This document shows positions 9,647-15,509 of a stretch of DNA of 64,000 bases, piece after piece. A program made the position numbers and the translations under genes. The stretch lies in contig BAAIJX010000012.1 in NCBI GenBank assembly GCA_054600435.1, positions 62,001 through 126,000 of the forward strand. The letters are read 5' to 3'. How positions within the stretch are numbered: the first letter of the stretch is position 1; each line of letters starts with the position of its first letter. The notes below the pieces were generated by a model. That model did not search any database. It had not been told where the DNA came from and worked only from the letters and a program-made list of their open reading frames with translations. The stretch is from Neophaeotheca triangularis. Lineage: Eukaryota.

Positions 9647-11227
9647 ATGGCATCGTTATCTGCAGCACAACATCAAATCGTTCCATCGGAATCGCCCCAT
9701 TTCGAGCTTGGGAAAAGCGGAAGCCATACCAAACCGGCGACAGAGCATGAAACCCGCGTCAAGCAGATTGCGGACTCGGTATGGCGATTCTCAGAGCGCG
9801 GCGAGCAGTACAGAATCTACCATGGATCCACAAACACCACCAGGAAAACCCAGCTGTCGCGCGCAGGCGTTGTGGATACCAGCGGACTGACCGAAGTTTT
9901 GTCGATTGACAAGGAGAAGATGGTTGCCGTTGTAGAGCCCAATGTTTCGATGGAGAAGCTTGCCGACGCCACCCTCGAAGTCGGTCTCGTGCCCCAAGTA
10001 GTTATGGAATTCCGTGAGATCACCGTGGGAGGCGGTTTCGCCGGCACAGCGGGCGAGAGCAGTAGTTTCAGGTTCGGCCTCTTCGACAATACCATCAGCG
10101 AGATAGAGATCGTGCTGCCCTCAAGCCAAGTCCTCACTGTTTCCGCCGACGTACGTCCAGACCTTTTTCGCGCGGCTGCTGGGTCCTTTGGAACGTTCGG
10201 AGTCATCACTCTCTTGACAGTGCGGCTTGTGGAAGCTAAACCCTATGTGGAACTGACATATTCACCTGTCGCGGGCATGGAAGAGGCCGTGCGGAAGATA
10301 GAAAACTTGCAAGACGATCACGACACCGAGTACCTCGAGGGCATCATGTTCGGCCGTAACAAAGGGCTCATCATCCACGGCCGCAAAACGGCCAAAGTCG
10401 ACCAAGACCTGCGTTGCCAGCAATACCTGCGAGCCACCGACCCCTGGTTCTACCTCCGAGCAGAAGAAATCCACGGCCAAAGCCTCGACGACTTCCGCGA
10501 GCTCGTGCCCCTCAAAGACTACCTCTTCCGCTACGATCGCGGCGCCTTCTGGGGCGGCAAATACGCTTTCCAATACTTCCTCACCCCCTTCAACGCCCTG
10601 ACGCGCTACCTGCTCGACTCCTTCATGCAGACCAAAACAATGTACCACGCCATGCACAAGAGCCGCATGTCGGACCACTACATCGTGCAGGACATTGGCT
10701 TCCCGTACGCAACCGCGAGCGCCTTCATCGACCACCTAGACGCAGCCTGGGGCTACTACCCGCTCTGGCTGTGCCCGCTGCGCATGTCGCGCCACATGTC
10801 GCCGCAACCGCGCCGCTTTGCCGCTTTCGAGCCCGGCGCCCGCAGCCCCGGCATGATGCTCAACATCGGCATCTGGGGCCCGGGCCCGGCGCGCTACGAC
10901 GACTTCGTCACCGCCAACCGCCGCCTCGAGCGCAAGACTGCCGAGCTGGGCGGCCTCAAGTGCTTCTACGCCCAGGCTTTCTACACGCCCGATGAGTTCT
11001 GGGCGCTGTACGATAGGGAGTGCTATGACGGCTTGAGGGCCAAGTACGGGGCCGAGCGCTTGCCGAGCGTGTATCAGAAGGTGAATGTGGATTTGACGGG
11101 GCGGGTGCCGCGGGCTCGGCAGGGCTGGGGCGCTTGGTTGTATGAGAGTTTCAAGGAGCAGTGGCCTGTGAGGGGCGTGTATGGCGTTTTTTGTGTGCTG
11201 ACGGGGAAGGATTATTTGTTTAAGTAG
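9647..11227 (+). CDS. FAD-linked oxidoreductase, DHCR24/DWF1-like, paralog B, intronless
   Basis: First ATG at 9647 within ORF 9617-11227. Same motif series as paralog A: YHGSTNTTR, VEPNVSME, ITVGGGFAGTAGESSSFRFG, YLFRYDRGAFWGG, YPLWLCPL, GGLKCFYA. Confidence 0.92.
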   Translation: MASLSAAQHQIVPSESPHFELGKSGSHTKPATEHETRVKQIADSVWRFSERGEQYRIYHGSTNTTRKTQLSRAGVVDTSGLTEVLSIDKEKMVAVVEPNVSMEKLADATLEVGLVPQVVMEFREITVGGGFAGTAGESSSFRFGLFDNTISEIEIVLPSSQVLTVSADVRPDLFRAAAGSFGTFGVITLLTVRLVEAKPYVELTYSPVAGMEEAVRKIENLQDDHDTEYLEGIMFGRNKGLIIHGRKTAKVDQDLRCQQYLRATDPWFYLRAEEIHGQSLDDFRELVPLKDYLFRYDRGAFWGGKYAFQYFLTPFNALTRYLLDSFMQTKTMYHAMHKSRMSDHYIVQDIGFPYATASAFIDHLDAAWGYYPLWLCPLRMSRHMSPQPRRFAAFEPGARSPGMMLNIGIWGPGPARYDDFVTANRRLERKTAELGGLKCFYAQAFYTPDEFWALYDRECYDGLRAKYGAERLPSVYQKVNVDLTGRVPRARQGWGAWLYESFKEQWPVRGVYGVFCVLTGKDYLFK

Positions 11228-11630: not shown

Positions 11631-13226
11631 CTAGAACAGCTTATGCTCAAGCGTCATGTCATTTTCGGGCTCCAGACCAACACAAGCCCGCATAATGTTA
11701 ACCATAGCACTCCTCTGCTTGGCCAGCGCATTGACAACCGGCGTGCCCGGCGGCGTGAGCGGCGCCTTAAGCATATAGCTCAGCACGCTCAGCACGGAAT
11801 GGAAACCCCTCCACTCCTGCTGGCCGTGCTCGCGCCACTGAATACGCGTCATCAGCTCCGCAACAAGAACGAGGTCGATGATGAGCGGCGACGCGAGCAG
11901 CGAGTCCTCGCAGACGTTGAAGAGCGAGATGGTCTGGTGCCCGCCCATGAAGATCTCGGCGTAGTACTCGTCCAGGGCGCGCTTGTTGTCGCCCACGGCC
12001 GGCATGTACTTGATGACGACGGTGTGGTCCGGGTGCTCACCGGGTTTGTAGAGGACATTGTTGGCCGCGACCATGTCGTCGACGACGTTGGATTTGGAGA
12101 TTTCTTTGCTGCGGAATTGCTTTTGCGACGAGAGGTTCATGCCGTCGTTGTTGCCTAGGTGGTTGTAGGAGGCGATCGAGGTCAGCTTGATTCCGGCGTT
12201 GATGAGGAAGTCGACGAGCGCGGATTTCATCTTGGTCTGTCCGGATTTGAAGTCGTCGCCGCCGATGAAGGCATTGTGTCTTTCCGCTAGCTCGATCGCG
12301 CCTGGGACGAAGGTGTTTTGGGGGGAGCCGTTGATAAAGGGCGTGTTCTCGAGGATACAGGCGACGGCGAAGACGGTGGAGGGCGAGACCTCGGCGTTAC
12401 CGTCTTCGATGGCCTTCATCAGATTGTCAGCCGTGTCGTTGACGCCTGAGACAAGGTCGGCGTAGCGCTCGGTGTTGGCGGTCCACTGAACGATGACCTT
12501 GTCGAGGTTGTTCTGGGCTTTGAAGTCGCGAATGTCCTGACGGAGCTTCTCGACGTGCTCCATGCTGGCCTTGGAGCCGGGAAGGACATTGTCGGCACGC
12601 TCCTCCTGGTTGGAGGCGATGAAGTCGGGATAGTAGATGCTGGGGAGAGGCTTCATCTGGGCCATCTCCTTGCCAACGAGAGCTTTCAGCGTAGGCTCAA
12701 GGACCTTTGCGCGGTCCATGCTAGCGGCCATGTCCATGCCCGAGATGTCCCAGCCACCGATGGCGAGGTCATTGGGGTGGACCATAGGCAGCATGTCATG
12801 GAGAGGGATGTTGATCTCCTTGCCCGTCTTTGCATCGGTGCCGAGCTTGATGGTCGAGGCCATGACCATGGAGCCGTAGTAGTTGGCTTCACGAGGACCT
12901 TCGCGGGTGCCCCAGGTGAGCTTGCCGCGGTTTGCAATAATGCCCGCGGTGACAGTGGTGCCATTGTTACCACCCCATCCGACGAGCATCATGCCGACCT
13001 TGCCGACCTTGCGTTCGGTCTTGAAGTCGTAGACAGATTCCTTGGGAGTAGCGACATACTTGCCATTGTCGGAGGTGATCTCGGTGGTACGGTAAGTGTA
13101 CTTGCTGGTAATGTCGTTGTCATTGTAGCTGACGTTGTCCGAGTTGACGGTAAAGAGATCACTTTTGGCTTGGGTGTAGGTCATGCCTTGGGCATTGCCG
13201 TTGGCGTCGTTGGCGTGAGGAGCCAT
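11631..13226 (-). CDS. INO1: myo-inositol-1-phosphate synthase
   Basis: 531-aa ORF with the MIPS signatures GWGGNNG, (Q)[19 protein letters not shown] and [10 protein letters not shown]. Confidence 0.98.
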
Positions 13227-13265
13227 TATTGTTGGTGGAGGGTGCTAGTCGTAGAGTTTTGACTT

Positions 13266-13505
13266 TTATCTAGTATGAGGGGCGTCCGAAGCTGCACCTG
13301 CAGGGCTACAGCGACGGCCGGCGTGGGTGTTGTGGACGCTGCAGGAGGAGTTGTAGTCAGTAAAATAGAGTCGTCGAAGCATGTTGCTTGCTACGTCAAG
13401 CCGAAAGCATAAGGCTTCGCGATCAAAAGGAGAGCTGTACAGGGATGCATACGAGTTGAGAAGGTTGGAGAACGTCTTGACGGCTGCGGGGTCAGATAGA
13501 CCCGT
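13266..13505 (-). other. Candidate non-AUG (ACG) upstream ORF in the INO1 leader, split by a 114-nt intron; 41 codons
   Basis: Intron 13452-13339 (GTATGC...TACTGAC...CTCCTGCAG). Spliced frame TGLSDPAAVKTFSNLLNSVHNTHAGRRCSPAGAASDAPHTR* stops at TAA 13268-13266, 39 nt before the INO1 ATG. The intron is well supported; translation is inference. Confidence 0.55.
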
Positions 13506-13575
13506 GGGTACAGTGAGTGTAATGTGGCAAAAGTTCTGGAGCTGGAGGATTCCAAGGTTGGTTGAGATTTGCTTT

Positions 13576-13618
13576 GGAGAGAGAGAGAGAGGAGAAAGAA
13601 AGAAAGAAGGAGAGAGAC
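13576..13618 (-). promoter_or_regulatory. CT-rich tract, probable core promoter element just upstream of the INO1 transcription start
   Basis: About 43 nt almost purely pyrimidine on the minus strand (GA/GAAA repeats on plus); such tracts commonly precede start sites in filamentous fungi. Confidence 0.5.
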
Positions 13619-15509
13619 AGCAGATGGCAGGATTCTTATCCTGGCGGCAAGAACAGCTCGCAGTGCGCTTACCGTAGGCTTCCATATTATCCATCCGTAG
13701 ATTCCGTGCTAGGCGCGTTGGTTGGGCTTGACGGTCAGTTGTTGCTGTACGCTACGGTGTATAGTAAGTCCAGAAGATGGATGGAGGATGGATCAACTGA
13801 GGTCGTCGGAAGCAAAGTTGTTCCGGCCGGGGAAGCTCTGGAGAGTGAAGGGTGAAGACCGTCAACGACGGGAGGAAGTTCAGGTTTGGCCTTAGTTCTG
13901 AAGACATGACAGATCACGTAATCCGAGCTGACCACGTTCCATTGTCCATGGCAAGTTTTGCTCGGGCTGCACCTCTTGACGTCGAGTATCTTGCGGATAG
14001 ACTCATCCTGTTGATGTCGTGGCTCGCCGGAGGTATATCCCCAGATTCCAGTGCAGACCACTTGTACCGAGGTGCTTCATCTCGTCGCTCCGATTGGCAG
14101 TTTTTAGGCCAAGGAAGGCTTTATAAGTGGTCTACGTTGCGTGATTCAAAGGGCGAACACAGACACAGATCAAGCCCGGGGAGAGGTTCGACGACAAGCT
14201 CTCGACATGTCGCGGGAGAAGATGTTGTCGTCGCACCGATCAGCAGTCAGCACTGAAAGCGGCCGGGCACCTGGCCTCGATATGGTCGCCATGCTCGGAC
14301 ATATCAATAGCAACGCGCCGACGGAACCCTACCCTGCCCTGCCTCCCTGCCTATGTACCCTACCTCGAGCCTACGTTGCCTACCTACTACCTAGGTTAGG
14401 TGTGCAGAGCTACGGTCTACCTTACCAGGATCAAGGTCTCGGAACAAAGCAGACGCGCTAAGGTGCAGAGTTCCCGTCTGTCTGGAGAAATAAAACACAC
14501 GAGTCGGAAAGTGGGTTTCGCGGCTGCTGCTGTGACAACAATTGAACCAGCAAAGCAAAGCAATAAGATAACGTTAGCAGAGAGGTTCCAGACTTCCAAT
14601 TGCCTCTCTTCAAGCAGCCTGATACAACCATAGCAGCATGGCTTGCGATGATTGCGTCGCCGCTTGATCGATGGCGAGGTGTACATGTAATAAGGTACTC
14701 TCTTGAGCCTCCCGTCCCCTCTCGCCACAGAGTTCCAAGGTTGTAACTGGTGTCCATTCAAGGGCCGCAGTTGCCGAAGCTTGGCTCCCGTTGCTAAAGT
14801 TGGAGTGTCGACGCGTACTACACCAAGGTACCTACAATAAATAATGTACATAAATGTACAGGGCATAGTACTATATAGTTAGTTGGTGTGAAGATGAACT
14901 TGTACTACTGCACTGCACTGCACTGCCTCTGGTAAGAATAGCTGACGGGACAATTCCGAGAGAGGATCGTGGAGGATCGAGGAAGCGGGCAGCTGATGAG
15001 TATTATGTATGTAGTCAAGTAGTCCAAGCCTCAATCACTTCGTACTAATGCCCTGTCGTGGATGTGTTGGAACAGAGCTGCTGTGGGTCAGATTATCATC
15101 GCCGTCGATGAGGCCTTTGCATCTAGACCCTGCCTACCTGAAGTGCCTGTGTAGTATTTTTATTATGTGTCCATGTGTACCGAACATTGCGCGTTGCTAT
15201 GCCAAAATAGCCATGCGACAGCCTTCCAATTCCTTAGCTTTCCTTCCTCCACACACGCTAAGAAAGTGGTCCTTCGAGACAGTGCGTCGGGTCTTTGCCT
15301 TGTCAGTGCGTTTGTGATATATATATTAACACCCAGGGGGACCCGTCTCTTCTTTTGCATTCCTCTCTTCCATTCCGCATCTTTAACACACACACATACT
15401 CAAACTCACGCACACATTCGATTCACAAGCCTTTTCTGTGAATACTCAGCAAAAGCCCATTCATCCACACCAACACTTTCAATCAGCAATCCATCGCACA
15501 ATAATCAAC

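Follow-up and report, generated by a model that had tools for sequence, protein, structure and literature searches.

Myo-inositol-3-phosphate synthase, the product of INO1, catalyses the committed step of inositol synthesis, and the control of INO1 in budding yeast is textbook transcriptional regulation: Ino2, Ino4 and Opi1 act via promoter elements, and the gene is repressed when inositol is available. Closer to the case described here are peptides encoded in upstream open reading frames (uORFs). The nascent chain of the arginine attenuator peptide (AAP) of arg-2/CPA1 stalls the ribosome on the pathway end product, blocking scanning; its uORF starts at AUG, encodes ~24 residues and contains no intron. 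For AZIN1, a conserved peptide is read from a near-cognate start, and a metabolite-induced pause queues scanning ribosomes back to this weak start, raising its use. The AAP is cited as an example in a review (PMC11550727). The uORF of plant GGP starts at ACG, and ascorbate-dependent stalling has been proposed; changing the ACG to AUG strengthens repression and removal of the uORF relieves it (PMC11066809). In the cpc-1 leader of Pezizomycotina, a particular ACG is conserved in 98 of 100 species and supports initiation in vitro, as described in an article with 0 occurrences of inositol or inl (Ivanov et al. 2017, PMC5487733).

We analysed the INO1 gene of a Dothideomycete-like fungus within a 64,000-nt stretch of DNA, referred to as the window (Table 1). 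The encoded protein matches Pfam PF07994 (E 4e-142) and PF01658 and shows 81-84% identity to the best-matching INO1 proteins, of which the named ones are from Cladosporium, Meristemomyces and Hortaea. From RNA contigs and comparison with other fungal loci, we consider it probable that the INO1 mRNA carries a leaky, weakly initiated uORF of 31 codons, encoding a regulatory peptide that would gate INO1 translation.

Table 1. Features of the INO1 gene and its leader (window positions; all on the minus strand)
Feature	Position	Strand	Details
CT-rich tract	13576..13620	-	Read in the sequence; 5´ of the transcribed leader
Leader hairpin	13489..13503	-	GGGTC / 5-nt loop / GACCC; 3´ end 14 nt 5´ of the predicted uORF start
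Predicted uORF start codon, ACG	13473..13475	-	C at -4, A at -3, T at +4
uORF exon 1, 23 nt	13453..13475	-	Start codon, FSNLLN and two bases of a Ser codon
Leader intron, 114 nt	13339..13452	-	Phase 2, in uORF codon 8; RNA joint
uORF exon 2	13266..13338	-	Final base of the Ser codon, VHNTHAGRRCSPAGAASDAPHTR, TAA
AUG-free spacer, 39 nt	13227..13265	-	uORF stop to INO1 AUG
INO1 main ORF (myo-inositol-3-phosphate synthase), 531 codons, intron-less	11631..13226	-	ORF list and Pfam

Splicing of the leader is directly supported by RNA. Among Logan contigs from marine metatranscriptomes, three of four runs (X1, X3 and X4, from two studies) contained contigs joining 13338 to 13453, with exact excision of the GT..AG intron (seen on the plus strand as a skip of 114 nt between CT and AC); the leader was outside the cover of the fourth run (X2). 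The bin 13369-13425 within the intron had zero depth in every run, and the intron carries the signals 5´ GTATGC, an ACTGAC branch site and 3´ CAG. The spliced contigs span 13201-13338 and 13453-13567, which places the uORF on the mature mRNA, as is characteristic of the conserved-peptide class of uORFs. A variant at 13290 in the contigs, within uORF exon 2, is synonymous (GCT>GCC). Transcripts extend upstream to at least 13567 (one contig), and transcription thus does not start 3´ of 13450. The mapping of the contigs skips 13573-13622 as a repeat; the CT-rich tract, which begins a few nucleotides 5´ of 13567, probably adjoins both the promoter and the transcription start.

Two ATGs, at 13694 and 13685, are located 5´ of the CT-rich tract. 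Those 3´ of the tract, at 13450, 13410 and 13382, are all intronic, and the spliced leader from 13620 to 13226 therefore contains zero ATG. One frame is open over the splice junction and ends at a TAA (13268..13266), with C in the third position of 55% of codons; INO1 itself has 53%, and the remaining frames of the leader have 30% and 40%. The initial annotation, made from the sequence alone, had described this open frame ending 39 nt before the main ATG, its C-ending codons, the confinement of the AUGs to a 114-nt leader intron and the lack of introns in the INO1 coding sequence, and each of these points holds. It had also noted an intron length that is a multiple of three and the absence of stops from the intron in the uORF frame. 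Both are true in the window, where the unspliced ORF in this frame is 142 aa, but neither is conserved: ortholog introns range from 47 to 143 nt and many have a stop right after the 5´ splice site. We therefore treat this state of the intron as chance.

Taken within the window alone, the open frame and the absence of AUG are within chance (2000 shuffles). One of the alternative frames in the spliced leader stays open over 92 codons, a length reached in 18.5% of the shuffles, and an ATG-free leader was obtained in 10.5%. This result would fit a non-coding explanation, in which the segment is a conserved DNA or RNA element, such as a site in the promoter, a signal for splicing or a fold of the RNA, or else the frame is a chance opening in a C-rich leader; in addition, a stem can be drawn within exon 2. 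The case for the putative uORF is decided by comparative evidence and not by the window.

In the 26 distinct uORF coding sequences recovered from fungal INO1 leaders, the frame is always open, and the other two frames contain stops in 10/26 and 21/26. The median NG86 dN/dS was 0.28 in frame (256 pairs) compared with 1.31 and 1.38 in the shifted frames, indicating the purifying selection on the peptide across taxa that marks conserved-peptide uORFs, and mean pairwise differences at the three codon positions were 0.34, 0.31 and 0.53. The median pairwise identity was 0.69 for the uORF, against 0.58 with shuffled partners, while no conservation by the same measure was detected for the intron (0.49 vs 0.47) or the spacer (0.53 vs 0.52). 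With exon 2 as a tblastn query against the ortholog leaders (a 57-sequence target set), identities of up to 65% were found (E 2e-7). As a point against the uORF, where the commonest motif is HHP[FY]NG, the peptide of the window deviates and reads HNTHAG. The architecture is likewise constant. The uORF has 31-32 codons throughout the models (31 in the window), exon 1 measures 23 nt in 32/32, and the position and codon phase of the intron are shared by 31/31 intron-bearing models. One locus (L029) is intron-less and reads the predicted junction as a single continuous frame. Across the 26 distinct leaders, ATG occurs 0 times in 3790 nt of exonic leader and 65 times in 2438 nt of intron.

These comparisons bear directly on the non-coding explanation. 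A conserved DNA or RNA element would not be expected to show a frame-specific substitution pattern with the frame intact in all 26 sequences, nor Leu codons that alternate between CTN and TTG among orthologs. The stem in exon 2 is without covariation support (78.4% paired vs 77.0% in shuffles, with 65/500 shuffles as high) and was rejected, RNAalifold found no consensus structure in this exon, and no Rfam family was matched at threshold, the sole hit being a sub-threshold chance match on the opposite strand. We regard a non-coding origin of the pattern as extremely improbable. The spacer that separates the uORF from INO1 is 34-71 nt in the 32 models, with a sequence that does not align and a length that varies modulo 3; the uORF is therefore not an N-terminal extension of INO1. 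It is instead a separate leader ORF ending 5´ of the main AUG, as in other conserved-peptide uORFs. A Pfam search with the unspliced frame matched no family, and one with the continuous peptide of L029 gave 0 families even with E as high as 10.

The same models identify the likely start codon. At the homologous position, ACG is present in 22/32 models (19/26 distinct coding sequences) although neighbouring third positions vary, and ATG and ATT are each found in five. The context follows the codon: all 27 models with ACG or ATT have A at -3 together with C at -4, and those with ATG have T at -3, a poor context. On a tree of INO1 (200 columns, many weak forks), the ATG models form one clade and the ATT models, which are Penicillium/Aspergillus-like, another (support 95 and 99), both within the widespread ACG. 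The codon is thus conserved, its context is favourable and there is no in-frame AUG upstream, as described for near-cognate uORFs. By these comparisons, the start of the predicted uORF is the ACG at 13475..13473, the Thr codon of 'KTF'. The substitution of ATG for ACG in one clade lends indirect support to translation of the frame.

The initial annotation had placed the start at an ACG at 13505, giving a sensing peptide of 41 residues. The frame is indeed open from there and that ACG has G at +4. However, the ten residues encoded between 13505 and 13475 are not conserved, no codon at this place is common to the clades, and the codon overlaps the 5´ arm of the leader hairpin. Moreover, in 11/32 models the conserved start is preceded by an in-frame stop at a distance of 0-17 codons (0-9 codons in six of them), and in three loci (L029, L030 and L052) a stop lies 6 codons 5´ of the start with no near-cognate codon between. 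A start at 13505 is therefore very unlikely, and the conserved unit is 31 codons rather than 41, given a start at 13475.

Upstream of the predicted start, the leader hairpin (-8.7 kcal/mol in the window) has an equivalent in other carriers: a stem-loop ending 10-17 nt 5´ of the start was detected for 24/25 near-cognate-start representatives and for 0/2 ATG-start representatives. In a second clade, 98.9% of 90 cells were paired, two of six pairs showed compensatory changes, and 0/500 shuffles matched this. We also built a covariance model (R1) for the hairpin; it recovered strongly only its own seed clade, with E of 0.02-2 for the others, and was for this reason left out of the hairpin counts. 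The fold of the entire spliced uORF was unremarkable (median z -0.85).

The full element was found in 42/56 fungal INO1 loci, 31 modelled directly and 11 sharing with one of these an identical sequence in the 400 nt nearest to the gene; the loci are metagenomic, with some near-duplicates, and the figure applies to this set. This distribution, together with the dN/dS of the frame and the shared intron position, bears out the initial proposal of a spliced, peptide-coding uORF with a near-cognate start before INO1. Judged by nearest named INO1, which is the sole basis of class assignment, the carriers are related to Lecanoromycetes, Eurotiales and Dothideomycetes. Exon 2 alone was found in two further loci; in L019, exon 2 was recognisable but exon 1 and the start could not be modelled. 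The element was absent from seven loci with 645-2500 nt of upstream sequence (L022, L048-51, L053 and L056), for which motif and regex searches, and tblastn using every exon peptide as query, yielded weak, chance-level matches only, such as one in L022 ~840 nt upstream (E 0.12). Three of these seven group with the window on the INO1 tree and have a leader intron but lack the uORF. The element is thus dispensable in some lineages, which counts against a regulatory role.

Given that the peptide is kept across distantly related filamentous fungi, we infer that the uORF probably controls the amount of enzyme, and we suggest the following mechanism. The uORF would be complete only once the leader intron has been spliced out. 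Its start would be kept weak on purpose, by use of a near-cognate codon in a good -3/-4 context or, in one clade, an AUG in a poor context, and because of this weakness most scanning ribosomes would leak past it and, meeting no other AUG in the spliced leader, initiate at that of INO1. The minority translating the uORF would produce a peptide whose sequence is under selection and which most likely acts within its own ribosome by slowing elongation or termination. A ribosome stalled in this way would block the scanning ribosomes behind it and reduce INO1 synthesis, probably under an ample supply of inositol or of one of its derivatives; it is the identity of the main ORF that points to inositol as the effector. 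Re-initiation at INO1 is predicted to be unlikely since the uORF stop is so close to the main AUG, and the covarying hairpin 5´ of the weak start codon probably adjusts how often that codon is used.

The uORF might instead be a constitutive brake that lowers INO1 translation, or triggers nonsense-mediated decay, to a fixed degree. Weak initiation, a uORF stop close to the main AUG and a leader devoid of AUG could all function in this way with no sensing involved. Consistent with such a brake, INO1 mRNA is increased in a Cryptococcus upf1 mutant, although that preprint shows no uORF (bioRxiv 10.64898/2026.02.19.706931). A brake indifferent to sequence would put no constraint on the peptide, whereas dN/dS was 0.28 for the uORF frame and ~1.3 for the shifted ones, with the length held at 31-32 codons. 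We consider a brake of this kind unlikely. Conservation covers the full length of the peptide and extends to its first eight residues, which would be far from the peptidyl-transferase centre. This might be seen if a free micropeptide of 31-32 residues, merely co-expressed with INO1 from one mRNA, acted off the ribosome, with the INO1 enzyme or inositol transport as conceivable targets. However, initiation at a near-cognate codon, or at an AUG whose context is poor, suggests that little peptide is made, the peptide matches no Pfam family, and the uORF holds a fixed position directly before INO1 and was never found away from it among the loci examined. We thus think a free micropeptide quite improbable, somewhat more so than the brake, and favour a peptide that would act in the ribosome that makes it.

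A more elaborate version of this ribosome-bound action can be put forward tentatively. The ribosome carrying the nascent peptide of 31-32 residues would itself sense myo-inositol or a close derivative, a queue of ribosomes would form a self-amplifying switch, and the intron would provide a second layer. A pause at the end of the uORF would cause scanning subunits to queue back exactly three ribosome lengths to the ACG or AUU, and the hairpin, refolded at the mRNA exit of the queued subunit, would raise start usage with inositol. The AUG-rich, positionally fixed intron would render unspliced mRNA translationally dead for INO1. As a whole this combination is possible but doubtful; if true, it would give polyols their first described nascent-peptide sensor.

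No report of an INO1 uORF was found in full-text searches of openly accessible papers. Lacking an AUG and interrupted by an intron, this uORF escapes standard annotation. In the lineages nearest to Dothideomycetes, Lecanoromycetes and Penicillium/Aspergillus, the uORF would add a translational layer to INO1 control, a hypothesis that is directly testable in laboratory moulds. Elements of this kind can serve to adjust how much enzyme is made, a use to which the plant GGP uORF has already been put (PMC11066809). The INO1 uORF would also be a new natural example of a start kept weak by selection, where ACG, AUU and an AUG in poor context replace one another at a single position, and would pair a structured element with a near-cognate start in a uORF existing only after splicing, three properties rarely seen together.

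Compared with the Ino2/Ino4/Opi1 system of yeast, the enzyme and the need are the same, but the leader element would act, if at all, on the mRNA; no CATGTG, CACATG or CACGTG motif was found within 13560-14400. The element resembles the AAP in being a fungal uORF peptide before a biosynthetic enzyme. The INO1 peptide nevertheless does not belong to the AAP family: its main ORF is INO1 and not the small subunit gene of carbamoyl-phosphate synthetase, and having no Pfam match, it matches no AAP leader family that Pfam may hold. With AZIN1, the likeness lies in the 31-32 codons (about three ribosome lengths), which, judging by length alone, would suit a queue, whereas the AZIN1 effectors are polyamines and the system is animal. 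The plant GGP uORF is ~60 codons, and that of INO1 about half as long. In the GGP/VTC2 case, a conserved-peptide uORF with ACG as its start likewise precedes the coding sequence of the committed first enzyme in a small-metabolite pathway (PMC11066809). The two systems differ in main ORF, kingdom and peptide; the predicted INO1 uORF has, in addition, a positionally fixed intron and a covarying hairpin upstream. Finally, cpc-1 shares with INO1 the deeply conserved ACG, AUU or CUG starts of filamentous ascomycete leaders, but its near-cognate codons extend the main protein N-terminally, whereas the INO1 leader would encode a separate peptide (PMC5487733).

In RNA contigs (Logan) from four marine metatranscriptome runs of two studies (X1-X4), position 13338 was joined directly to 13453 in three runs (X1, X3 and X4), skipping 114 nt with CT..AC borders on the plus strand, and depth was zero in the intron bin 13369-13425 in all four. 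This bears out the 114-nt INO1 leader intron that the initial annotation had read from the DNA. One contig carried the RNA upstream to 13567, so transcription does not begin downstream of 13450 and the mature mRNA holds the whole upstream frame; the contigs do not locate the transcription start itself, as the CT tract is masked by the tool. All leader ATGs below this tract (13450, 13410 and 13382) are intronic, leaving the spliced leader AUG-free, and the frame stays open across the junction to a TAA at 13268..13266, 39 nt ahead of the INO1 AUG, both as previously described. The RNA in X3 and X4 came from a close relative with three leader differences from the window, the sole one within the short upstream reading frame (uORF), at 13290, being synonymous.

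Features of the INO1 locus in the window
Feature	Position	Strand	Basis	Detail
CT-rich tract upstream of leader	13620-13576	minus	sequence reading	
Hairpin	13503..13489	minus		-8.7 kcal/mol
Leader intron	13452..13339	minus	sequence reading + RNA	114 nt; signals GTATGC, ACTGAC, CAG
INO1 main ORF	13226..11631	minus	ORF reading	531 codons, intron-less

A Pfam search found both domains of myo-inositol-1-phosphate synthase in the window INO1, whose top protein matches were 81-84% identical (best named: Cladosporium, Meristemomyces and Hortaea). From these nearest named matches, we take the fungus to be most likely a Dothideomycete. Tail-to-tail with INO1, ~400 nt beyond its stop, lies a 526-codon FAD_binding_4 ORF (PF01565, E 5e-13; window 9647-11227, plus strand), an ordinary neighbour with no evident link.

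By shuffling, an ATG-free leader arose in 10.5% of shuffles, and a second frame of the spliced, C-rich leader runs 92 codons without a stop (P 0.19); the AUG-free leader and open frame are right but carry little weight in a single sequence. Scanning metagenome contigs with the first 200 residues of INO1 gave 56 fungal INO1 loci at 64-83% identity to the query, and the window leader frame was compared by tblastn with the 900 nt ahead of every INO1 AUG. Both exon-encoded pieces were matched in most loci. The compared loci are metagenomic and partly redundant, with Sordariomycetes, Leotiomycetes, yeasts and Basidiomycota outside the comparison. Explicit models were made for the window and 31 loci (26 distinct coding sequences), and 11 more loci had the same final 400 nt of upstream sequence as a modelled one. 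The full element was present in 42 of the 56 loci and exon 2 alone in two (L021, cut by the contig end, and L019, with exon 1 unresolved); it was absent from seven whose upstream sequence spans 645-2500 nt (L022, L048-51, L053 and L056), and five (L018, L028, L045, L046 and L054) were outside the presence/absence calls.

The anatomy was constant. Exon 1 consists of the start codon and 20 further nt in every model, and the second exon completes the frame to 31 or 32 codons, ending 34-71 nt before the INO1 AUG. In all 31 intron-bearing models, codon 8 is interrupted in phase 2 by a GT..AG intron 47-143 nt long (28 of them with a CTRAY branch motif), the positional conservation proposed earlier as a check. 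In the exception, L029, the frame runs uninterrupted through the predicted junction (uORF at L029:101-199). This contig of 1937 nt, a transcript-like size, is little more than the INO1 mRNA and represents either a cDNA-derived contig or intron loss; its closest relatives have no CDS intron, and so do not discriminate between the two.

The uORF frame was open in 26/26 distinct coding sequences, with stops in 10 and 21 of them in the other two frames. Median pairwise dN/dS, the other comparison suggested in the initial annotation, was 0.28 in frame versus 1.31 and 1.38 in the frames shifted by one and two bases; variation was highest at third codon positions (0.53 versus 0.34 and 0.31), and Leu codons swapped between CTN and TTG. 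Apart from the uORF, only the preceding 60 nt showed conservation, and this was weak; the intron, spacer and more distal leader were no more similar than shuffled partners. The best-kept peptide pieces are T/[FY]SNLLNS, HHP[FY]NG, RR, GGASD and a C-terminal T[RK] before the stop, with L6, S8, H10 and G23 invariant; the window exon 2, VHNTHAGRRCSPAGAASDAPHTR, is a variant partly common to several other loci. Comparison of these sequences argues that the INO1 leader frame is coding. The frame-specific signal speaks against a non-coding element, and the conservation of the peptide against a constitutive brake.

The initial annotation had proposed a longer, 41-aa peptide from ACG 13505. That codon is not conserved, which speaks against this reading, and the conserved frame opens instead at ACG 13475..13473. 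The start was ACG in 22/32 models (19/26 distinct coding sequences) and never another Thr codon, even as third positions of the adjoining codons varied, and was always accompanied by C at -4 and A at -3. A clade nearest Lecanoromycetes has an ATG with T at -3 (in L009 directly preceded by an in-frame TGA), and ATT with A at -3 is found in another clade, where INO1 shares 90% identity with Penicillium lividum and 84-87% with Aspergillus species; L029, L030 and L052 each have an in-frame stop six codons before the start, with no near-cognate codon between. The ATG and ATT forms are each one clade on the INO1 tree (support 95 and 99), amid widespread ACG. The pattern reads as weak codon with strong context and AUG with weak context, as expected if selection favoured inefficient, leaky initiation. 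Such a weak start speaks against the product being a free micropeptide. Separately, in three lichen-fungus-like loci (L002, L005 and L007) a second in-frame ATG occupies the 3 nt preceding the INO1 ATG, and the protein may start Met-Met.

Across the 26 distinct sequences, exonic leaders downstream of the uORF start held 0 ATG in 3790 nt versus 65 in 2438 nt of leader introns (~27 per kb), so confinement of AUGs to the intron is a general property of this leader family. Because of this distribution, little INO1 would be translated from unspliced mRNA, and intron retention would be strongly inhibitory.

A stem-loop of 5-10 bp, ending 10-17 nt before the start, was present in 24/25 near-cognate representatives, while no hairpin of at least 5 bp was found in either ATG representative or in L043. 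A stability of -5 kcal/mol was reached in 24/27 representatives, whereas of 277 control windows drawn from these upstream regions just 26% did so. In the clade whose hairpin core is GATCAC/GTGATC, pairing holds in 98.9% of 90 cells (13-59% in slid controls), 2/6 pairs carry complete compensatory substitutions, G.U intermediates included, and 0/500 shuffles match the observed pairing or covariation score; in the window-type hairpin, A-U replaces G-C in L031 and L044. RNA structure is favoured over a DNA palindrome because changes in one arm alone are compatible with G.U pairs on the sense strand. The hairpin appears tied to near-cognate starts (ACG, ATT), a tie seen against one AUG clade, and structure upstream rather than downstream of such a start is unusual. 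The leader matched no Rfam family. Upstream of the hairpin, the Penicillium/Aspergillus-like clade (L026, L029, L033, L036 and L052) has a nearly invariant ~55-nt block, ~35-90 nt before the ATT start and beginning GGTTCGTATAA..CCTTGTCAGCAGGT, that is more conserved at the nucleotide level than the uORF itself.

The window's closest neighbours on the INO1 tree (L022, L053, L054 and L056) retain an intron in the leader ~330 nt before the INO1 ATG, its GT..AG and branch signals good, and have no uORF, the second exon before the AUG being just ~20-45 nt; loss of the uORF thus seems to have left the intron in place. On this short, partly unresolved tree, the element is lost several times, including in loci grouping with the window. 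L019 has a well-preserved exon 2 (62% identical to L030; ~150-260 nt before its INO1 ATG), with no start-capable codon at the expected exon 1 site, where the split codon would read stop; it may be a decaying copy or have a different exon 1.

The INO1 leader therefore contains a conserved coding uORF that is joined by splicing and opens at a tuned weak start; the path onward to INO1 has no AUG, and the uORF stop lies a short distance from the INO1 AUG. We suggest that most ribosomes would leak past the uORF start to the INO1 AUG, while those translating it would make a peptide that slows elongation or termination from within the exit tunnel. The slowed ribosome would block following scanners and might also leave the mRNA open to decay. 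Inositol status is the probable signal, since INO1 is the committed step. More speculatively, the fixed length of ~93 nt, roughly three ribosome footprints, would suit a ribosome queue feeding back on the weak start, by analogy with the antizyme inhibitor (AZIN1) leader.

The peptide matched no Pfam family, and we found no description of a fungal INO1 uORF in the full-text literature (subscription journals and supplements being outside this scope), nor in the passages of PMC5487733, PMC11550727, PMC12810187 and a Cryptococcus NMD preprint returned by term look-ups. The closest fungal precedent, by analogy, would be the arginine attenuator peptide, and conserved near-cognate starts are documented for Pezizomycotina cpc-1 (PMC5487733). 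The closest functional analogue would be the plant GGP uORF, which starts at ACG, encodes a conserved peptide and has been proposed to stall ribosomes in response to ascorbate (PMC11066809); the INO1 uORF resembles it in the ACG start and conserved peptide. On its sequence features, we would class the INO1 element with regulatory conserved-peptide uORFs having non-AUG starts.
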